Source: Eledone cirrhosa (taxonomy: Eukaryota). Taken from it: 64,000 bases of DNA. Positions 2,229 through 35,142 of the stretch are shown here, in pieces (position 1 is the first letter of the stretch; the number at the start of each line of letters is the position of its first letter). Location of the stretch: assembly GCA_964016885.1 (NCBI GenBank), contig OZ024743.1, forward strand, positions 222,704,001 to 222,768,000, given 5' to 3'. The notes beneath the pieces are model-generated. The model was given only the letters and a program-made list of their open reading frames with translations, searched no databases and was not told the origin of the DNA. The position numbers and the translations under genes are program-made.

Positions 2229-2681
2229 AGAGAGAGGAGGGGAGAGAGACGGGAAGAGAGTAGTGAAAGGGGGAGAGGGGGAAAGAAGAAAGAGAAAGAA
2301 GAGATAGAAAGAGAGAAGCGAGAGAAAGAGAAAAGAGAGAGAAAGGTGGAGAGAGAAAGGAGAGAAAGAAAGGAGGAGAGAGAGAGAAAGAAGAGAGAGA
2401 GAGAGAGGAGGAGAGAAAGGGGAGAGAGAGAGAGAAAGAAAAGAAAGAAGAGAGAGAAAAAGAGAAGAGAGAGAAAGAAAGGAGGAGAGAGAGAGAAAGG
2501 AGGAGAGAGAGAAAGAAAGAAGAGAGAGAAAGAAAGAAAGAAGAGGAAGAAAGGAGGAAAGAGCAAAAGAAGAGAGAGAGAGAAAGAAAGAAGAGAAAGA
2601 AAGAAGAGATAGAAAGAGAAAGAAAGAAGAGAAGGAAAGGAGGAGAGAGAGAAAGGGGGAGAGAGAGAGAAAGAAAGAGAG
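2229..2681. repeat. Polypurine GA-rich tract
   Basis: About 450 bp almost exclusively G/A. Confidence 0.95.
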
Positions 2682-2905
2682 ATGATGCTTAAGATCCACT
2701 GTCTTTGTTCTTTGACTCCTCCTCCTCTTTCTCTCTTTATCCATCCCACACACTTTCCCCTTTCTTCTATGCCTCACACTATCCCCTTTCTCTTCTTTGG
2801 ACATTTCTATTCTGTGAATACATCAAAAGATATTTCATTAAATGAAAGTGACAATCAGCATCTATAATGATATGCCTTGTACACACATTTACTTGATGAT
2901 GATGG

Positions 2906-3297
<392 letters not shown>

Positions 3298-6180: not shown

Positions 6181-6242
<62 letters not shown>

Positions 6243-6273
6243 TAGAGGCATATATGGATACATATATATATAT

Positions 6274-6610
6274 GGAGGCACATGGCTGAGTGGTTAGAGC
6301 ATTGGCCTTGCAATCGAAAGGTTGTGAGTTCAATTCACAGACCGGGTGATGTGTTGTTTCCTTGAGCAAGACACTTTATTTCACATTGCTCCAGTTTACT
6401 CAGCTGTAGAAATGAGATGATAGGGACTGGGGTCCCTATCATTCCACTGCAAAGTGGTCGTGGAGGTGCCACGGAAAAAAAAGCACCCAGCACTCACTGT
6501 AAATGAGGTTGGTGTTAGGAAGGGCATCCAGCTGTAGAAATCAAGCCAGAATATGTTCCTGTCCCACCCTTGCAAGCAGGGAAAAGCGGATGTAAAATGA
6601 AATGATGAAA
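6274..6610 (+). mobile_element. tRNA-derived SINE family 2 with RTE-type 3' tail
   Basis: TGGCTGAGTGGTT A box, GAGTTCAATTC B box, core CCTTGAGCAAGACACTT, ending in CTTGCAAGCAGGGAAAAGCGGATGTAAAATGA like the RTE terminus. Confidence 0.85.
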
Positions 6611-6727
6611 ATGAAATGATATATATACATATATATATATATATATATTGTGTGTGTGTATATATATATATATAATATATACCTACATACATATATACAT
6701 ATATGTGTGTATATATATTTATACATA

Positions 6728-6759
<32 letters not shown>

Positions 6760-6818
6760 CATATATATATATATACACATATATATATATACACACACAC
6801 ACACATATATATATATAT

Positions 6819-6849
<31 letters not shown>

Positions 6850-6851
6850 AA

Positions 6852-7186
6852 TCATCATCATCATTTTACGTCCACTTTTCCCTGCTTGCAAGGGTGGGAC
6901 GGGAACTGATTCTGGTTTGATTTCTACAGCTGGATGCCCTTCCTAACACCAACCTCATTTACAGTGAGTGCTGGGTGCTTTTTTGCCGTGGCACCTCCAC
7001 GACCACTTTGCAGTGGAATGATAGGGACCCCAGTCCCTATCATCTTATTTCTACAGCTGAGTAAACTGGAGCAATGTGAAATAAAGTGTCTTGCTCAAGG
7101 AAACAACACATCACCTGGTCTGAAAATTGAACTCACAACCTTTCGATTGCAAGGCCAATGCTCTAACCACTAAGCCATATGCCTCC
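6852..7186 (-). mobile_element. SINE family 2, inverted copy
   Basis: Highly similar reverse complement of 6274-6610. Related heads at about 36405(+), 48690(+) and 55120(-). Confidence 0.85.
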
Positions 7187-7252
7187 ATATATATATATAT
7201 ATCATCATCATCATCATTTAATATCATATATATATATATATATATATTTTTT

Positions 7253-8596: not shown

Positions 8597-10648
8597 CATC
8601 ATCATCATCATCATCATCATCGTTTAACGTCCATGTTCCACGCTTGCATGGGTTTGGACGGGAGTTTTCCCACTTGAGGCAAGAGTGGTTGTCTTGCTCG
8701 CATAGGACTGTCTGGCAGGTTTTCTACGGCTGGATACCCTTCCTAACACCAACCACATTTACAGTGTGGGACTGGGAGGTTTTTACCGTGTTGCCTACAC
8801 GGCCACATTACAGCGTGGACTGTGTGTTTTTTTGTCGTGACACCTACACGATCTCATTTGTTTCGGCCTGGGTGTTGTGGCACCAACATAACTTTACATT
8901 GAAAGGGGCGGTGTGGATGGGGTGGGGTGGTGGGACGGGGGTGTATTTTGTTAGAGATGCCTACTGACTGTAGTAGGTTTTACTTTGTATTTAGGTAAGG
9001 CGGGTCTTCTCTATTACTGAGTACCGCCAAAGGTCTCGGTCCAGTGACATTGTCTTGGAGAGGTGTAAGTGTGTGAGGTCGGAATTTATCAGCTCGTCCC
9101 AGGTTTTTCTGGGTCTGCCTACTCCGTGGCTACCATCTATCTTTATTGCCCTGCACTTTGTTATACAGCTGTCGTCTTTCATGCGCATCACGTGACCATA
9201 CCAACATAGCCTTCTCTCGAGTAAACAACATCTGATCCCTCTTATTTCTAATTTTTACCTTAGTTCGTTTATGCTTTGCCGTTCACGTATATTACTATTA
9301 CACATCCAGCGGAGCATGCAAGCTTCGTTCCTCTCTAGTCTGCGTATATCCTCTGCACACAATGCCCAGGTCTCACTGCCATGCAACATTGCTGTTCGTA
9401 TGCAGGCATCATACAACCTGCCTTTCATTTTTAGGGAGAACCCTTTAGCGGCTAATAGTGGTATAAGCTCTCTGAACTTTTTCCATCCAGTTCTGACTCT
9501 AGCTACTGTACTTTCAGAGCACCCTCCCCCACTGCTGATTTTGTCACCCAGGTAACGGAAGCTGTCCACTATTTCTATAGAACCCTCTGCGCAATTGAAA
9601 GAGCTAGTATTTTGTGGGCACTTGCTGCTACTTATTGCACCAGATCACCAGCCACATGTAAAATCTGTGTTCTTAGTTAGCTTACCTGTGATCCCACTAC
9701 ATCTTTTATGCACCCATACTTTGCATTTGGGACATAAAATGGAGTTTCTACCTACTCCTTTCCTACACACTGAGCATGGCCATTTCCCGGAAGGGACCAG
9801 CGCCTTATTTTCTTTCCTACAAACTAGAACTTTAGTCTTAGCGAGGTTAATTTTAATGCCTTTTGATTCTAGGCCGTGCTTCCATGTTTGGAATTTCTTC
9901 TCTAGCTCGGCCATTGATTCAGCTATGAGCGTTAGATCATCTGCGTATAGGAGTTCCCATGGGCAGCCGGTCTTGAACTCCTCTGTTATAGCCTGAAGGG
10001 CAATAATAAATAGTAGGGGGCTAAGAACAGAGCCCTGATGGACACCAACTTGTACGCTAAACTCTTCACTATATTCGTTGTTAATTCTAACCTTGCTGAC
10101 TGTTTCTTTATACATGGCTTGTATAGTTCTCACAAGCCATTCGTCAACACCTAGTTTTCTAAGAGCCCACCAGATAATGGAACGGGGGACTCTGTTGAAG
10201 GCTTTCTCCAAGTCGACAAAAGCTAAGTATAGGGGTTTACTTTTAGCTAGGTACTTCTCCTGTAGTTGTCGTACAATGAAAATAGCATCTGTGGTACTTT
10301 TGCCTGACACAAACCCGAACTGCATTTCATCTAGATCAATTCTCTCTCTGATTAGTTGCGCTATTACTTTTTCCGTGACCTTCATGACCTGGTCGATTAA
10401 TTTAATGCCTCTATAGTTACTCCTATCTAGGGCGTCTCCTTTACCCTTGTAACAGTTAACGATGATGCTGCTACGCCAGTCCTTCAGAATAACCCCATTC
10501 TGTATGACTTGGTTTACTATCCGGGTGACCATGGTGTGTCCCACCGTTCCAGAGGCTTTCAGCATCTCAGCAACTATTTCCGAAGGCCCAGCCGCCTTAC
10601 CCGTCTTCATATCTTTGATTGCCTTACTTATTATACTACCTTCGACTA
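8597..10648 (-). mobile_element. RTE-clade LINE, 5'-truncated, frameshifted
   Basis: RT motifs KGKGD..NYRGIKL, QFGF, FVDLEKAF, GVHQGSVLSP, YADD, FRYLG, HGSETW, GRPRKTW; about 400-bp 3' UTR; (GAT)n tail. Confidence 0.95.
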
Positions 10649-11429
10649 ACATCTTGTTGTGTGCAATGCCAGGTCAGGTGACCATGTCTTGCTCATACAA
10701 AACCAATTTTAGCTTGGTTTCTACAACTGGGTGCCCTTCCTAGCACCAACCTCATTTACAGTGTGTACTGAGTGCTTTTTGCTATGACATCTACACAACC
10801 ACTTTACAGTGTGGGCTGTGCATTTTTTGCCATGTTGCCATCATGACCACTTTACAGTGTGGGCTTGAGGCTTCACTGGATGTATGCTTCAGTTTGTCCT
10901 CATGGGAGATATATGGGAGTGAGTGGGGTGGTACATACTGTATATATGCTTCACTCTCGGCCTGGGCCAAAGGAAGTCTGGTCTTCTATAATACTGCGTA
11001 ACGCCAGAGATCTCGGTCCTGTGCCATCGCCTTTGAGAGGTGCAACTGTATAAAGTCAGCTTCTATCACCTCATCTCAAGTCTTCCTGGGTCTCTCCACT
11101 CCACAGCTTCTATCGGTACTTTACCTGGTTTTCTCAGTTATTATTTATAGTGATTGACTATTCTTATAGTCTTTTACATTGGGACAATTACATTTCAAAT
11201 CTGTGTGTGTGTAATGTGTATGTAGTGTATATGTATGTACAACAAAAATAATATCATTTACATTTATACATACATGTAAATGTAGTTGTCTAATTAATAT
11301 ACATATTTCATGAAGCTACTTAATTATATATTTTCTTTTTAAAAAAAATTATACATGATGTTAGATAGGTATTTTGCATATAACCAAGGAAAATTGATAG
11401 ATTTCAGTTTTTAATTTAAGTGTATGTAC

Positions 11430-15621: not shown

Positions 15622-16115
15622 TTAGGAGATGAGTTTGTAATCAGGATTCCATTCTGTTAGCATGCCAATATAGGAAGAAATCATTCCAAGGAGACCCAGT
15701 ACTCCTGGGGAAAGGTTAACTTGACGTAACATGGCCATTGACAAAGGTAAGTCTGAGGTATTACGTATTAGATCAAATAATATTGGTTTGTTTTTCAGCA
15801 AACTATAAACATACAGTTGTAATCCAGAGCAATTCTTTATAGTTTCTTTGTCAGTCGCACACTGGAGCTGGTAAAGATCCTTTCCAATACCGAACATAAT
15901 ACTTGCCAACCAGAACTGGGCAGCTAACTCAGAAATCCTAGAACGGTTGATCTTTACAACACCAACACGATCCAACCAAATCATATTATCAAACAGCAGA
16001 AACAAAGCGCTATTAATCTTCACCAAAGAAACCAATGTTCTCAAGACTACATCATCAATGTGGAAAGCCTTAAATGTACTGTTTAACACTTCAAAACTCT
16101 TCCCAAAACGAAACA
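15622..16115 (-). CDS. PEX11: PEX11 exon 3 (terminal)
   Basis: ttcag|TG TTT CGT TTT GGG, encodes (M)FRFGKS...LFLLFDNMIWL...FWLASI...DLIRNTSDL...GVLGLLGMISSYIG...KLIS*, the typical PEX11 C-terminal half. Confidence 0.93.
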
Positions 16116-17707
16116 CTGAAAAATATAAGAAAAAATTAAAATTGATGTTATTTCAAAATTTTTTTTTTCTTATTATTTATTTCTCTAGTCATGTATAAAT
16201 TTAAAATACTAGGATTTTTTTCAACACGCTGACACTGTTGCGACACATGGCCATTTAAATCTGGCAGAGCTCATTTATATTCAGTTCTGAACACAGTCAA
16301 TTTCAGAGAGAGAGAAAAAGATATATAGAAGAGGAATTGACCCTAGTTCCAGACTAGGTACTATATTTATTGAAAGGATGAAAGGCAAAGTTAATTTTGG
16401 TGGCATTTGAACTCAAAGTGGAAAGAGCTGGAACAAATATCACAAAACGATCTATCTAATGTGCTAACGACTCTGCCAATTTGCTACCTTAAATCTTTCC
16501 TTGCGATATTTCTGATGAAAGCCACTGCCTATGATTTTCAAACAATCTTGATAATAAACAAGAATTATTAAGTTCATGTTTGGAGTATAGCAAAATAAAA
16601 GTTCTTACATAAAATGATAATGATGGAAGGTTTCAATTAAATATGAACATGACTTAATAAAGCTTCTCACGTAAAATTATGATGGAATGTTTTTAGATAA
16701 ATATGTATGGACCTGTAACTCCCGCGGGAGTCCTAGAGGCATCATATTGATATACAGTATTTCTTAGGGCATTTTGAAATCTGACAGAGCCCATCATCTC
16801 TCCAGGCTTGAATACAGCAGTTTTTTTCTAGAGAAGGATAGAGAGTTAGAGAATGGAAGTGAGAAAGAATCGATCCCAGTACTTGATTGGTACTTTTTTT
16901 ATTGATCTCGAATGGATGAAAGGCAAATCAAACTCGGCGGGATTTGAACTCAGGGAGCAGAGAGCTGAAATGAATACAGCAAAGCATTCTATCCGATGTT
17001 CTAACAACTCTGCCTATTGCACCAATGTAAGCTATATCTGAAACCAAGTATACAAGAAAGAGTTATACGTTCTACTGGGAAGAAGATTTTATCATCGTCA
17101 CTCTTAAAAGCAAAATGTCAGCTTTCAATCAGTAAATAAAGAGTTACGTCCCTTGAAGAGCTCATTTGTCATCTTTGGTAAATAGTAGATTGTTTCAAGG
17201 TGGCGAATTGGCAGAGTCGTTAGAATGTTTTGCAGTGTTCGTTCCAGTTCTATACGCTCTGAATTCAAATCCCGCCGAGGTCAACTTTGTTACTTTTTTT
17301 TATTGACCTTGAAAGGATGAAAGGCAGTGTAGTACTGGGGTCGATTCCTCACTTTCATTCTCTCACTCTGAAAGAAATCTGCTGTATTCAGACCTGAAGA
17401 GAAGTTGGACCCTGCCAGATTTTAAAATGCCCTTGAAACGCCGTATGTCAATACGTCGTCCCTACGACTCCTTCAGAGGTTACAGGACCATGCATGCATA
17501 TTGTTTCAGTGATTTTTGTTAATTTATTGTTCCTGTTATTTTTGGACAGCATTATTCAGGTTGACCTGAGCAGACTAATCCTATGAACAAATTGCTCCTG
17601 CTTCTACGATACAAAGCAATATATTTTAGCCCCTTTATGACCGCATTTGTAATGAAATAAACTATTTTAATTACAAATAAGTATGTTTTGAAACAGCAAG
17701 TGAGTTT

Positions 17708-21892: not shown

Positions 21893-23549
21893 CATCATCA
21901 TCATTGTTTAACGTCCATCTTCCACACTTGCATGGGTTTGGACGGGAATTTTCCCACTTGAGGCAAAATTGGTTGTCTTGCTCGTGGTTGTCTGGCGGGT
22001 TTTCTACGGCTGGATGCCCTTCCTAACACCAACCACGTTTACAGTGTGGACTGGGAGGTTTTTACTGTGTTACCTACATGGCCACATTACAGCGTGGACT
22101 GTGTTTTTTTGTCGTGACACCTACACGACCTCATTCATTTGGTACCAACATAACTTTACATTGAAAGGGGTGGTGTGGATGGGGTGGGGGTAGTGGGACG
22201 GGGGTGTATTTTTATTAGAGGTGCCTACTGACTGTAGGTTTCGCTTTGTACTTAGGCAAGGCGGGTCTTCTGTATTACTGTGTAGCGCCAAAGATGTCGG
22301 TCCAGTGACATTGTCTTGGAAAGGTGTAAGTGTGTGAGGTCGGAATTTATCAAGTCGTCCCAGGTTTTTCTGGGTCTGCCTACTCCGTGGCTACCGTCTA
22401 TTTTTATCGCCCTGCACTTTTTTATACAGCTGTCGTCTTTCATGCGCATCACGTGACCATACCAACGTAGTCTTCTCTCGAGTAAACAACATCTGATCCC
22501 TCTTATTTCTAATTTCTCCCTTAGTTCGTTTATGCTTTGCCGTTCACGTATATTAATATTACACATCCAGCGGAGTATGCAAGCTTCGTTCCTCTCCAGT
22601 CTGCGTATATCCTCTGCACACAATGCCCAGGTCTCACTGCCATGTAACATTGCTGTTCGTATGCAGGCATCATACAGCCTGCCTTTCATTTTTAGAGAGA
22701 ACCCTTTAGCGGCCAATAGTGGTATAAGCTCTCTGAACTTTTTCCATCCCGTTCTGACTCTAGCTACTGTACTTTCAGAGCACCCTCCACCACTGCTGAT
22801 TTTGTCACCCAGGTAACGGAAGGTGTCCACTATTTCTATAGAACCATCTGTGCAATGGAATGAGCTAGTATTCTGTGGGCACTTGCTGCTACTTATTGCA
22901 CCAGAGCACCGGCCACATATAAAATCTATATTCTTAGTTAGCTTACCTGTGATCCCACTACATCTTTTATGCACCCATACTTTGCATTTGGGACATAAAA
23001 TGGAGTTTCTGCCTACTCCTTTCCTACACACTCACCATGGCCATTTCCCAGATGGGACTGGTGCCCTATTTTCCTTCCTACAAACTATAACTTTAATCTT
23101 AGACAGGTTAATTTTAAGGCCTTTTGATTCTAGGCCATGCTTCCATGTTTGGAATTTCTTCTCTAGTTCGGCCATTGATTCAGCTATGAGCGTTAGATCA
23201 TCTGCGTATAGGAGTTCCTATGGGCAGCCGGTCTTGAACTCCTCCTGAAGGGCAATAATAAATAGTAGAGGGCTAAGAACGGAGCCCTGATGAACAACTT
23301 TTACGCTAAACTCTTCACTATATTCGTTGTTAATTCTAACCTTGCTGACTGTTTCTTTATACATGGCTTGTATAGCTCTCACAAGCCATTCATCAACACC
23401 TAGTTTTCTAAGAGCCCACCAGATAATGGAGCGGGGGACTCTGTCAAAGGCTTTCTCCAAGTCAACAAAAGCTAACTATAGGGGTTTACTTTTAGCTAGG
23501 TACTTCTCCTGTAGTTGCCGTACAATGAAAAGAGCGTCTGTGGTACTTT
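21893..23549 (-). mobile_element. RTE-clade LINE, 5'-truncated, in PEX11 intron 1
   Basis: Same family as 8.6-10.6 kb: EKAFDRVPR, HQGSVLSP, PHD-like finger, FRYLGDK, RRLRWYGHVMR, same 3' UTR. Confidence 0.95.
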
Positions 23550-26033: not shown

Positions 26034-27189
26034 CCAGGCTTGGAACAGACTTTAACCTATTTTTAACCTTCTGTGACAAGAAACAGTTGGCAAGAATCTT
26101 ATTGTTTTATTCAGCTAAAATGTTCAGCTGCAGTATTGAAAGTAGAAGAGCAAACATGGCTGCCTTCATTGCAAACAGCTAACTGTCAGCCTTCAAGCAA
26201 AGAATACAATGATGTACCTAGACCAGTAGTAGCGATAATGCTACAGAATTAGTTTTTCTAGTGCATTCTATCCTAACTGCATTCTTGAATAAAATACAAT
26301 TTCACATTACTCCTTCTACCAGGAGTTGCAACCAGCAGATAGTATTGGCAATGGAAAGGCCAATAGGAACATGGTTTCCTTGGTCCAATCTGACGATTGA
26401 CTCCTTTTCTTAATTTTATTGAGGTCCCAATAATAATTATATCTAACAATAGCACAAGACAGTAAATTAAAATATCCTCCGTACCTGTTCAGAATTTCAA
26501 GTACTTTGTTTCACAAAAGCACCTACTTTTTATCATTATTTAGGTGCATTACTGGTACTTATTTTATCGATCCCGTAAGGATGAAAGGCAAAGTTAACCT
26601 CGGCGGGATTTGAACTCAGAATGGCAAGGGCCATAACTCTATACGCCATGCTTTGACACATAGAGTTACGGCCCTTGCCATTCTGAGTTCAAATCCCACC
26701 GAGGTTAACTTTGCCTTTCATCCTTACGGGGTCGATAAAATAAAGTACCAGTAATGCACTGGATAATTGCTGGCCTTGTGCCAAACGTAGAAACTATTAT
26801 TTAGTATAAGATTGTTCCACCAATTGTTAGTGTTAAATCTGTGTGTGGGATCTATATATACCACTCTCTGATCATGGATTAGTCCACCATGTGATCCCAG
26901 CGGATATAGTGTTTAATGTGTGTATATGTGAGAGCTGTATGAGTTTACAGTGTGTGTGGCCTGTATTTACCACTCACTGTTTAAAGGTCAGTCCACCTCA
27001 TGGACAGGATGGAGAAGACATTGCCCCGAAGGATGTGAAGGGAGATGCAGTAGAACAGCCACTCCGCCTCACAGGGCTCACACGTGCAGGTAGTCAACTC
27101 TGCTCCGATACCAGTGAAACATATGCACACACTATTGGCTATCAAGTCTGAATGTTTCTCTCTTTCGAATATTGTATAAGTCTGAAGTA

Positions 27190-30884: not shown

Positions 30885-31196
30885 TTTCCCAGTGAAAAAT
30901 AGTTTAATTAGGAATAAGTATAAATTAGTAATAAGTATTGGTTAGTATTCAGTTTTAGTTTTAAGTTTTTGCCGGTTGCGCATGTTTAATGCTTTTCAAA
31001 AATAATTTTGAGATAGAGCACTCGTGATGTTTGCTCTAATCTTAGAGCAAACATCACGAGTGCTCTATCTCAAAATTATTTTTGAAAAGCATTAAAAATG
31101 CGCAACCGGCAAAAACTTAAAACTAAAACTGAATACTAACCAATACTTATTACTAATTTATACTTATTCCTAATTAAACTATTTTTCACTGGGAAA
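30885..31196. repeat. Near-perfect 312-bp palindrome (155-bp arms, 2-nt loop)
   Basis: Symmetry axis between 31040 and 31041; one mismatch seen (GCATGTTT vs GCATTTTT). Confidence 0.95.
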
Positions 31197-31227
31197 AATT
31201 TGTCAGCATTTTCTTTTCCTTTTCCTA

Positions 31228-31283
<56 letters not shown>

Positions 31284-31285
<2 letters not shown>

Positions 31286-33125
31286 CGATTTAGAGACGTA
31301 TGACATAGATAATAACTGGAATTTCTTACGTGACAACTTGCTGCAGACTACTGATGAAACTTGTGGCTGGAGCAGAGCTCCAACCAGACAGAGAGTGACC
31401 TGGTGGTGGAACAGCACAGTAGATAAGGCCATTAGAGACAAAAGACTAGCATGGAAGGCTTGGAAAAAGGGTGGGAGTAGGGAAGAATATACAGCCGCTA
31501 AGAGAGAAGCTAGACGTCAGGTGTACTTAGCACGCAGGGAGGCTAAGAGTGGGAGGTTTGCCAATGTTCTGCGACGGGAAGATCAGAGGCGTGCGGTGTT
31601 CCACATTGCAAGGCAGTGTGTCAATGCAAATCAGGATGTTGTTGGAGATAAATGTGTCCGGAATGATGCCGGTGTACTTAGTGTCACGAAAGATCAGAAA
31701 AAGGAGGCCTGGAAATGTCATTATGAGAGACTGATGAATGTGGAGAACGAATGGGAGAGAGAGAAATTACCCTTAGTAGATCCGACAGAGGGACCAGCTA
31801 TTGAGATTGACGAATATAGGGTCCAAGAGGCGATTAAGGAAATGAAAAATGGTAAGGCTGGTGGACCATCGGGAATAGTTGCTGAGATGCTGAAGGCATC
31901 AAGGGACGTAGGCACTAAACTGGTTGCAAGCATCATCAATCAGGCTATATATGGTAGTGTCATACCCAAAGACTGGTGCAGCAGTATTCTCATAAATTGC
32001 TACAAAGGTAAAGGGGATGCTCTGGAGAGGAGCAATTATAGGGGTATAAAACTGATGGATCAGGTTATGAAAGTGGCAGAAAGGATATTAGCACAACTAA
32101 TTAGAGAAAGGGTCAAACTAGATGAGATGCAGTTTGGTTTTGTGCCTGAGAAGAGTACAACAGATGCCCTCTTCTTGGTGAGACAATTGTAAGAGAGGTT
32201 CTTAGAGAAAAATAAGCCACAAAACTTACCCTTTGTTGACCTAGAGAAGGCCTTTGATAGGGTACCCCGATCTGTCATCTGGTGGTCCCTAAGGAAACTA
32301 GGTGTTGAGGAATGGCTTGTGAGGACAGTGCAAACTTTGTACAGAGGTACTCCCAGTAAAGTCAGGGTAGGAATGGAGTTTAGTGAGGAATTCCAGATAC
32401 AAGTAGGAGTACATCAAGGTTCGGTCCTCAGCCCGCTCTTGTTCATTATAGTCCTCCAAGCCATAACAGAGGAGTTTAAGACTGGCTGTCCATGGGAACT
32501 TCTCTATGCTGATGATCTGGTTCTTATAGCAGAATCAGTAGAGGAGCTAGAGAATAAATTCTGGCTATGGAAACAGCAGTTGAAAGCAAGAGGACTGAGA
32601 GTGAACCTAGCTAAGACAAAAGTGTTGATGAGTAGAAAAGAGGACAAAACTCTGATTCCGTCAGGGAAATGGCCATATTCGATATGCAGAAAAGGAACTG
32701 GTATGGTAGTGAGACATGGGTAGCAACTGCAGAGGATATGCGATGGCTGGAGAGAAATGAAGCAAGCATGCTCCGTTGGATGTGCAGTGTAAATGTGCGT
32801 GAACGACCCAGCATGAATGTGTTGAGAGAGAAACTGTGTCTGAGAGGGATAGAATGTAGTGTACGGGAGAGGAGACTGGGGTGGTATGGACATGTGATGC
32901 GCATGGAGGGTGACCGATGGGTGAAGAAGTGCCAGTTGAAGGAAGACGTGGTAGAGGTAGACCAAGAAAAAGATGGGCAGAGGTGGTGAGAACAGACCTC
33001 AGATCGTTGAAGCTCACGGTGGAGATGACGAAGGACCGTGACGAGTGGAGAGATGCTGTGCTGAATAAGACCCGTCCCACCCTTGCGAGCAGGGAAGAAC
33101 GGACGTGAAATGATGATGATGATGA
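31284..33125 (+). mobile_element. RTE-clade LINE (second family), 5'-truncated, with stop, frameshifts and an internal deletion
   Basis: TWWWN, NYRGIKLMD, QFGF, GVHQGSVLSP, YADD; deletion near 32698 joins ICRKG to YGSETW; ORF runs into a (GAT)n tail. Confidence 0.95.
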
Positions 33126-33276
33126 TATATATATATATATATAATAATAATACTATTTATAGATATGTATATAGTATAAACAACTATAAACAGGAAGGTC
33201 AGTAATTTCTTAATTACCTTATTACCAGTAAGAGAAATAGCTCAATGTATGAACATCAGTTCTTTTACAGAGCAGT

Positions 33277-33841
33277 TAAATAAATAAATTATACAATTAT
33301 CAAAGTTGTGTTCAAATCATTTAATAGCTGACAATCGTTTCTTCCAAACTCTCGTTTGGAGTCATCGGAGCATTATCAATGTTTGCACATATAGTTACCC
33401 TCCTATTCAACTGAACAATAATATAGATACATATAAATTGATGTTGTGAGCAACAGTTTCGTATTTACAGGGTGGAATGGATGTGACATATATTTTACGA
33501 GAATTGTACAATAATTGTACAAACATTCAAGTTCAAATTCAAATCAAAATTAAAATTAAAATCAAAAGCACGGAGTGGAATACATGCAACAGTTAAAACA
33601 AGGGAATAGTCCAAATATTAAAGAGGCATTGAGGAAGCAGTTTTGAGAATAAAATACGAAACTGTTGCTCACAACATCAATTTATATGTATCTATATTAT
33701 TGTTCAGTTGAATAGGAGGGTAATTATATGTGCAAACATTGATAATGCTCTGATGATTCCAAACGAGAGTTTGGAAGAAACGATTGTCAGCTATTAAATG
33801 ATTTGAACACAACTTTGATAATTGTATAATTTATTTATTTA
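33277..33841. mobile_element. 190-bp inverted repeats (185-bp spacer) with a hammerhead motif in each arm; Penelope-like
   Basis: Arms 33277-33466 and 33652-33841 with about 3 mismatches; abuts (TA)n on the right. Confidence 0.75.
33744..33795 (+). ncRNA. Minimal type I hammerhead ribozyme motif (intact core)
   Basis: AATGCT-CTGATGA-TTCCAAAC GAGA GTTTGGAA-GAAA-CGATT-GTC-AGCTATT. 8-bp stem II with a GNRA loop, GUC triplet at 33786-33788, stem I GCT/AGC. Confidence 0.78.
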
Positions 33842-35142
33842 TATATATATAACTTTTACCGTCTAACCTATGCTAGTTTGAAAGATGGACGTTAAACGAT
33901 GATGATGAAGAGTTTATATATATATATATATATAAAGAGCAATATGTATTTTTTGTGAGGGGCCAGGGGCAGCAAACTAAAGGGTTGCCCCAAGGTGGCA
34001 CACACTCTAGCTACATCACTGTACAAAAGAATAGAAAATAGGTTAGAAACACGGAAAATTTAGTTTGAGTGAAACAGCCAAGACACAGCTACTAAGTAAT
34101 CATAAAATAACAAACTAAAGGTATATTTACAGTATCTTGTACTATTTTAATCAAAAAGGTTAGCAGATATGGTGGAGTAGATAACAACAAAACAGTTCCA
34201 GAATAAAACCATATACTGTTCAGATAACCTACATGGAACAGTAGGTAAACATATGAAACCTATTGCCAACAAGTATTTTTCTTGTATAAAAGGGAGATTA
34301 TCTCTTAATGTTTCTACCTTATAAAACCACATTAGCAAAACATTCTTGAAAAGTATGAAACAACACTATAATTGCATCATATTAAAAATTAAATGTCTTT
34401 ACTCTAATACTGCAAACTTTTACTAGTAAAGACACTATAAATATTTGAATTAACAAACCTGTATTTTCTGCTAAATTATAAGAGGATGTTAAGAGCTGTA
34501 TGAGGCATAATATAATATAATGGTGTATCCCAGTGGGACAGTGACAAATAATCGTTTCTACTTTAGGCACAAGGCCAGCAATTACTCAGTGCATTACTGG
34601 TACTTTATTTTATCGACCCCGTAAGGATGAAAGGCAAAGTCAACCTCGGCGGGATTTGAACTCAGATTGTAAAGGGACATAACTATGCTGGAAAGCATGG
34701 CGTCCGACCCTCTACCGATACTGCCAATCCACTGCCCTGGGACAGTAACAAATAATGAAGAGTATTTGCAGCTATTGGGTAAAAAAAAACATTTTCTGTT
34801 ATATTGATCCTCCTCTTCCTCCTGGTCACCCTCATCACCACCATAATAACAATAATAATCATCCTCATCATCACTGCTTTTCATCTGTTTATCACGTTGG
34901 CATCATCATCATCGTTTAACATCCATCTTCCACGCTAGCAGGGGTAGGACAGGCTGTCCCTTTGTGAAAGATCAGGCTGGGGACCGTGATTTGCTCACAC
35001 ATAACTGATTTTGGCTTTGATCTCTCAATTTGGAGAAGCAGCAGCTCTACCTGGAGTGACACTCTGATCTCTGAGCTACGCACTCTAATGAATAACATTA
35101 CTCCAAATACCCTTTGAATTGAAAACTTTTAATCTGTGCTTA

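Follow-up and report, generated by a model that had tools for sequence, protein, structure and literature searches.

Truncated ends of a putative Penelope-like element, carrying a variant hammerhead motif, form an inverted repeat in the genome of Eledone cirrhosa

The locus and its inverted repeat

The window, by which the whole analysed stretch of 64,000 nt of the Eledone cirrhosa genome is meant, contains an inverted repeat whose arms, as located by a repeat search, measure 190 nt each, are 98% complementary and are separated by a spacer of 185 nt (Table 1). Arm-to-arm comparison revealed exactly three mismatches (33724/33394, 33751/33367 and 33757/33361), two of which fall inside a hammerhead-shaped motif present in both arms. 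Read in the sense of that motif, the right arm carries T and the left arm C at all three sites. In a plus-strand transcript these mismatches become G.U wobbles, so that the predicted hairpin stays fully paired. RNA folding of the 565 nt returned a single continuous hairpin of -332 kcal/mol, in comparison to -103 +/- 7 for shuffled sequences (z -33.5). The initial annotation had described a repeat of about 190 bp with roughly three arm differences, two of them within a ribozyme, and had expected about 190 bp of double-stranded RNA from a read-through transcript; the geometry agrees with this description, and the folding likewise predicts the double-stranded RNA.

On one side, the repeat adjoins a LINE-type retrotransposon. 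The 3' end of this retrotransposon reads ...GGACGTGAAATGATGATGATGA, continues in TA repeats and borders directly on the first piece of the inverted pair; a second short copy of the same 3' end lies on the other side. Summed contig depth reaches 0.36-1.3 million on the LINE segment 32800-33081 and only 20-35 thousand on the arms, a gap which indicates that the LINE-type repeat is far more abundant than the element forming the inverted pair.

Table 1. Features of the inverted repeat, its immediate surroundings and the related family found elsewhere in the genome. Positions are those of the window unless a locus is named; PLE, putative Penelope-like element.
Feature	Positions	Strand	Details
Flanking LINE-type retrotransposon; the PLE landed in its 3' end/(TA)n tail	31140-33124	+	RVT_1 E=1.3e-20 on 32193-32723
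Left, longer PLE copy, 5'-truncated	33125-33651	-	In (TA)n microsatellite
3' tail of left copy (unit positions 376-527), with outward TA run	33125-33276	-	Similarity reaches 33125 in at least 15 loci
Left arm, PLE 3'UTR segment	33277-33466	-	Carries family-state motif
Left-arm motif, family state CCGAUGAC...GAAAC...GUC	33330-33368	-	Arm comparison
Left copy, further upstream 3'UTR, 5'-truncated here	33467-33651	-	Other copies run on for at least 2.5 kb
Inverted, shorter partner copy, more severely 5'-truncated	33652-33851	+	Right arm = 33652-33841
CTGATGA box	33750-33756	+	Right arm
Stem II, 8 bp	33757-33764 with 33769-33776	+	Right arm, loop GAGA
GAAAC	33777-33781	+	Right arm
GTC	33786-33788	+	Right arm; predicted cleavage after C33788
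TA run, outer 3' end of right copy (short 3'-end type)	33842-33851	+	Copy comparison
Second short copy of LINE 3' end with (TA)n	33880-33949	+	Repeat families D1, D2; depth
Canonical type I hammerhead family	L031-L038, e.g. L032 1501-1545		RF00163, 35-38 bits

Other features are found further away in the window. An inverted pair at 6210-6701 and 6761-7247, built from a repeat of about 490 nt which is about 90% identical to positions 2543-3033 of locus L034, is arranged back-to-back like the pair described above and may represent another element inserted by similar machinery. Among the 10 open reading frames scanned, the only ordinary host gene fragment is a 176-aa open frame at 15622-16152 (-) matching PEX11 (PF05648, E=7.5e-28). 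Retroelement remains are recognisable in the frame at 9645-10673 (-), which encodes an RVT_1 domain and a PHD finger, and in the frame at 22252-23031 (-), which encodes a PHD finger alone. Moreover, the segments 30947-31134 and 26597-26705 form long perfect hairpins scoring 49-77 bits against plant and animal microRNA-precursor models, below the respective thresholds; these, too, are probably transposon scars in inverted-repeat form.

A putative Penelope-like parent and its insertion

Searches across the genome (3.0 Gb) revealed that the arm is a young, high-copy repeat, with 2174 first-look candidates and, among the 40 which were scored, mostly 97-100% identity. Other copies extend at least 2.5 kb further upstream, into an open reading frame in which the reverse transcriptase (RT) motifs FDI..Y, YRDDALL and FLDATL, read by eye, are followed, in the same reading direction, by a Cys knuckle and then by a GIY-YIG domain. 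The nuclease was matched by the Pfam profile PF01541 with E=2.1e-4 and 21.9 bits, narrowly below the cut-off of 22.6. In the longest copy, 257 and 562 aa are open, with one stop between them. A search with the 562-aa part at E<=1e-5 yielded 128 unnamed homologues, most of them of 480-800 aa; RVT_1 was present in two among the 120 homologues listed of those 128. The RT part itself returned no sequence match in Pfam or PDB. Pfam searches returned nothing on short fragments of the reading frame, and nothing useful on four of the homologues.

Since the RT part is without such a match, the assignment to the Penelope-like elements (PLEs) rests on the motifs read by eye, the domain order, the GIY-YIG match below the cut-off and the architecture of the insertions. 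The order of RT and then GIY-YIG, the heavy 5' truncation, the microsatellite targets and the inverted partners all fit the PLEs as portrayed in the consulted portions of Craig et al. 2021 (PMC8557442).

The nuclease is itself widespread, a first look at the genome having produced about 46,000 candidates. When 20 diverse copies were chosen by their nuclease (75-91% identity), the unit found in the window was located about 1.5 kb downstream of it in 17. No pseudo-LTR, i.e. a partial tandem with the motif at both ends, was found in four long copies, in which the unit occurs only downstream of the open reading frame. The inverted repeat is thus read as the 3' untranslated end of a PLE of the C-terminal-nuclease type, an identification which forms part of an overall explanation that we consider probable.

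The layout of the insertion was compared across 28 independent loci (30 were retrieved, two of which duplicate others). The outer ends are constant, one at the equivalent of 33125 and the other at that of 33841-33851, each within a TA run, while the inner ends vary from locus to locus; this combination indicates 5' truncation during reverse transcription. Nine of the 28 loci hold a further copy no more than 1.5 kb away; in every case the pair is oriented with the 5' ends inward and the 3' ends outward, and the junction is variable. The same inverted-partner layout is found at the truncation points of long copies. As this layout recurs with variable inner ends, the length of the 190-bp arm is just that of the stretch covered by the shorter partner. 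The locus is therefore an ordinary PLE insertion scar of a kind already described, not a designed double-stranded RNA or ribozyme device.

The two copies differ at their outer ends. The 152-nt tail at 33125-33276 is present only on the left copy and is lacking on the right one, which ends in the short form; all six copies with this short 3' end whose terminus could be located exactly run directly into a TA-rich microsatellite. Both copies likely derive from one insertion event, in which, judging from the layout, the RT and the GIY-YIG nuclease of the element would have primed synthesis from both sides of the cut. The arm difference at the polymorphic site 33757 could instead reflect two template RNAs in place of a single event.

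Direct repeats of 78-81% identity which flank the element were considered as a target-site duplication. The idea was dismissed on two grounds: their divergence is too great for a young insertion with arms at 98%, and they match the LINE 3' end, of which they are two copies.

The hammerhead-shaped motif and its family state

In the right arm, the motif spans 33750-33788 (+), and the segment between GAAAC and GTC reads ACGATTGT, which is self-complementary when G.U pairs are counted. Stem III comprises 2 bp with the loop GAUU. Across the motif as a whole, stem II measures 7-8 bp and stem III 2 bp, and stem I consists of 3 + 4 bp interrupted by one bulge. The right arm possesses the three stems and each of the 11 strictly conserved core letters. 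The left copy (33330-33368, -) reads CCGATGAC, and in it a C faces an A at the base of stem II. Inspection of the single elements gave a mixed picture. The GAAA box, the A15.1-U16.1 pair and a residue other than G at position 17 are all present, and are invariant or nearly so in an alignment of 21 rows including older subfamilies (alignment A1), where H17 is either C or A. The CUGANGA box, on the other hand, is present in the right arm, whereas the left arm and most of the family have CCGAUGA. The G10.1-C11.1 closing pair of helix II is absent from both arms, being replaced by U-A in the right and by C.A in the left; the corresponding column pair of the alignment (58/77) is unpaired in 18 of the 21 copies. 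The spaced core pattern (CTGATGA, 6-34 nt, GAAAC) occurs four times in the window against 0.28 expected, and only at the right-arm copy is it accompanied by a stem II.

Exact genomic matches to the motif allowed the state of core position 4 to be followed across the family. CCGATGA was found in 163 of 182 matches and CTGATGA in the remaining 19. Contig depth, taken from four sequencing runs of unspecified kind belonging to one study and yielding family-wide letter shares, assigned C about 86% of the summed depth at position 33751 in three of the runs. Furthermore, 19 of the 21 rows of alignment A1 have C at core position 4, and T appears only in the right arm of the window and in the copy at L068. 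Counting only copies from outside the window, 18 of 19 read C, and the exception, L068, has changed at the same CpG. The majority forms of the motif in the family are CCGAUGAC and CCGAUGAU.

Given this dominance of C among matches, depth and aligned copies, the left arm represents the family state, and the CUGAUGA of the right arm is likely a derived CpG-to-TpG variant. The change of C to T at a CpG is a one-way decay. Of the copies with CTG, 9 have one state of the polymorphic neighbour site 33757 and 10 the other, as predicted by independent CpG decay. At that neighbouring site the difference between C and T is a common family polymorphism (T in 19, C in 12 and G in one of 32 copies, in a sample picked by likeness to the right arm). 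At the third mismatch, 33394, it is the left arm which is derived, with T in all 32 other copies.

The initial annotation had read the anatomy of the right arm accurately, with CUGAUGA, an 8-bp stem II, a GAGA loop, GAAAC, a near-palindrome and GUC at 33786-33788, and the same is true of CCGAUGA in the left arm with a C-A mismatch at the base of stem II. Its polarity, however, is reversed: what it took for an intact right copy and a mutated left copy are the rare and the common state, as the 163 of 182 matches with CCG, the depth share and the 18 of 19 copies from outside the window indicate. It had also proposed a comparison with the family consensus and named a consensus without the core as evidence against its own reading; the consensus, with CCGATGA in the majority, does lack the canonical core.

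Rfam provided no direct recognition of the motif. No match to its hammerhead models was found in the window at the gathering score (the curated threshold of RF00163 is 34 bits), nor at E<=10 on 1.1 kb or on 101 nt, and neither arm was recognised. In eight long PLE-bearing loci no hammerhead was among the best 150 Rfam matches, which extended down to 25.6 bits. Elsewhere in this genome, RF00163 gave 18 scored matches of 34-38 bits, and the family validated in this way reads CUGAUGA-GUCC-UAAAUA-GGAC-GAAAC-AUUGUC.

Both the motif and the 3' tail are common to this canonical family and to that of the window. The two families align collinearly over the motif and about 150 nt of tail with a local score of 75, which none of 500 shuffles reached (26.7 +/- 4.5, z=10.7) and which compares with 57 for the best of 264 window segments. 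In the tail of the left copy the blocks ACATTGAGCTAT and TTACTG are aligned with their counterparts in the canonical family. TA repeats stand at the end of the canonical copies too, and one locus (L031) contains a head-to-head inverted copy. Judged by this alignment, the motif in the window is a true relative of the canonical type I hammerhead and not a chance match. Since the canonical relative has U at core position 4, the simplest history would be a single U-to-C change in the clade's ancestor, after which the CpG reverted from C to T in scattered copies. In this reading the motif is the PLE's own descendant of a type I hammerhead, with C in place of U at core position 4 and without the G10.1-C11.1 pair, and the CUGAUGA of the right arm likely arose after insertion through CpG deamination at 33751.

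Efficient self-cleavage is not predicted for either arm at this locus, because stem III has only 2 bp, motifs of this kind work as same-strand dimers and the two copies lie on opposite strands; for the latter reason a dimer between the two arms is excluded. In the predicted minimum-energy fold of an 81-nt right-arm RNA, CUGAUGAU pairs with AUUGUCAG, burying both the core and the cleavage site. The consulted portions of earlier work describe short-stem-III hammerheads as requiring a same-strand partner in order to dimerise and as slow even then (PMC4209133, PMC7229834), and PLE hammerheads as having low in vitro activity (PMC4209133). As regards the core, the excerpts of PMC3088659 at hand state that most core mutations drastically cut hammerhead activity and that U4C considerably lowers it in vitro, and they also mention a viroid U4C hammerhead whose activity is sufficient, and which is viable, in vivo. 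For this last reason we infer, and do not assert, that the C4 motif is inactive.

Overall, the locus is best explained, and with good probability, by truncated PLE ends inserted head-to-head in (TA)n, which carry a descendant of the hammerhead with a variant core, likely altered by CpG decay in the right arm and predicted to be inefficient in cleavage.

The alternative which survives best, although we judge it unlikely, is that the whole PLE clade uses a working U4C hammerhead, the C4 motif being under selection and the right arm a mere variant. It draws on the retention of C4 in 19 of 21 diverse rows, on the viability of the viroid example (PMC3088659, in the portions consulted) and on the abundance of the C4 family, which outnumbers its canonical relative by 182 to 7 exact 35-nt genomic matches. 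The pattern of variation also points to constraint on an RNA of the hammerhead type. Position 7, the sole free position of the core, takes U, A and G, and variation is also seen in loop II, in the bulge of stem I and at H17 (C/A); 8 of 11 free sites and 2 of 13 core sites are variable (Fisher p=0.011, a figure which overstates the evidence because the aligned rows are related copies). The stems are paired in 89.4% of cells over the 21 copies, and stem III stays self-complementary as ACGAUUGU or ACAAUUGU. Against this, covariation does not rise above shuffles, since a double change occurs in one pair, and equally good pairing was reached by 425 of 500 shuffles. The core is no more conserved than other columns (p=0.20), and the entire 220-nt 3' block is equally conserved (0.85-0.92), the motif being no better than the neighbouring 3'UTR. 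The G10.1-C11.1 pair is absent despite its high conservation in PLE hammerheads (PMC4209133, as far as consulted), and there is no Rfam match.

The reading of the initial annotation, in which the right arm is an active ribozyme hidden by 190 bp of double-stranded RNA that would feed Dicer or ADAR, appears very unlikely. The right arm does combine the complete set of strictly conserved core letters with three stems, and a hairpin of 190 bp is predicted. However, the canonical core is a product of decay carried by a minority of the family, the 10.1-11.1 pair is U-A, the predicted fold described above buries the core and the cleavage site, and the 2-bp stem III has no same-strand dimer partner. 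In addition, the motif is not matched in Rfam, and the layout is the generic scar seen in nine of 28 loci.

A MITE or foldback DNA transposon with 190-bp terminal inverted repeats, to which the long near-perfect inverted repeats, the size of 565-727 bp, the high copy number and the TA-rich sites might point, is highly improbable, as most copies have a single arm, the arm continues into the 2.5 kb RT/GIY-YIG element in longer copies, the outer ends are unequal with the 152-nt tail on one side only, and their fixed position against inner ends varying by locus is characteristic of reverse transcription with 5' truncation. A chance look-alike of a hammerhead in AT-rich repeat DNA deserves equally little credence: loose hammerhead descriptors do match by chance in large genomes and Rfam fails to recognise the motif, but the collinearity with the Rfam-validated family, the best score of only 57 among the window segments, which speaks against an artefact of composition, and the retention of the motif across PLE subfamilies whose nucleases are 75-91% identical all contradict it.

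Comparison with known systems

The truncated PLE ends found here resemble several systems already described. In the part of Cervera and de la Pena 2014 (PMC4209133) which was consulted, the minimal hammerheads of metazoan PLEs are likewise of type I, with a helix II of 7-8 bp and a helix III which is very short and has a self-complementary loop, implying action as dimers; their place is the non-coding end of elements with RT and GIY-YIG domains. Most of them stand singly within truncated copies or form dual motifs on opposite strands about 100-700 bp apart; the distance in the window is about 390 bp. Two differences concern the core. The descriptor used in that work required CUGANGA, from which the family of the window departs by having C at core position 4, and C.A or U-A stands here in place of the G10.1-C11.1 pair, described there as highly conserved. 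The strings CCGAUGA, CCGATGA, CCGAAGA and CCGAGGA are absent from two supplementary files of that article.

The PLEs with a C-terminal endonuclease treated in the consulted part of Craig et al. 2021 (PMC8557442), i.e. Penelope/Poseidon, Neptune, Nematis and Hydra, share with the present clade the order of RT and then GIY-YIG, the Cys-rich linker, the heavy 5' truncation, the adjacent inverted 5'-truncated copy and the bias towards microsatellites. Such elements are said there to carry canonical hammerheads universally, whereas the core of the clade in the window is non-canonical. The bias towards (TA)n is given for the Naiads, which have an N-terminal nuclease, while the nuclease here is C-terminal.

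A further likeness is with the animal non-LTR retrozymes (Cervera and de la Pena 2020, PMC7229834; Li, Clavereau and Pollet 2026, 10.64898/2026.07.22.740005), presented in the consulted portions as hammerhead-bearing, PLE-related non-coding sequences; the canonical-hammerhead family of this genome, with the motif and 3' tail which it has in common with the window, adds to the resemblance. Unlike the retrozymes, the sequence in the window is the truncated end of an element bearing an open reading frame, and the repeat search found no head-to-tail tandem of the unit at the locus. Without a direct repeat, no unit lies between two same-strand ribozymes and no circle is predicted.

The viroid U4C hammerhead cited in Perreault et al. 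2011 (PMC3088659, seen in part) has the same substitution, tolerated in vivo. There it is a quasispecies variant; in the PLE clade, as far as sequence can tell, it is the fixed state of a genomic retroelement. In the literature searched, which included the consulted text of PMC4209133 and did not extend to Lunse, Weinberg and Breaker 2016/17, no report of a PLE hammerhead with a fixed C4 core was found; for the core variant it yielded PMC3088659 and an unrelated article on an engineered ribozyme. The modest novelty of the present case would be a PLE clade of canonical domain order with a fixed non-canonical hammerhead core, whose canonical form has been regained through CpG decay in roughly one copy in ten.

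It is conceivable, although doubtful, that this clade of C-terminal-nuclease PLEs persists on a fixed U4C core without G10.1-C11.1 either because the variant is active and has been missed by surveys based on descriptors or Rfam, or because self-cleavage is dispensable, with CpG decay scattering canonical cores over roughly one copy in ten. If this were true, 'resurrected' hammerheads such as the one at 33750-33788 would be strewn through the genome by CpG decay. An annotation lesson follows in any case: an 'intact' ribozyme in one copy should be judged against the family majority, as CpG decay is able to create canonical motifs as well as to destroy them.

The consulted portions of PMC8557442 remark that Naiads proliferate unhindered without canonical hammerheads, and the abundance of the C4 family (182 against 7) fits this remark. 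The genome of Eledone cirrhosa thus offers a natural comparison between an abundant U4C family, its canonical relative with seven matches and the roughly 10% of copies which have regained the canonical letter, and these three natural forms bear on the question of whether the spread of PLEs needs self-cleavage.
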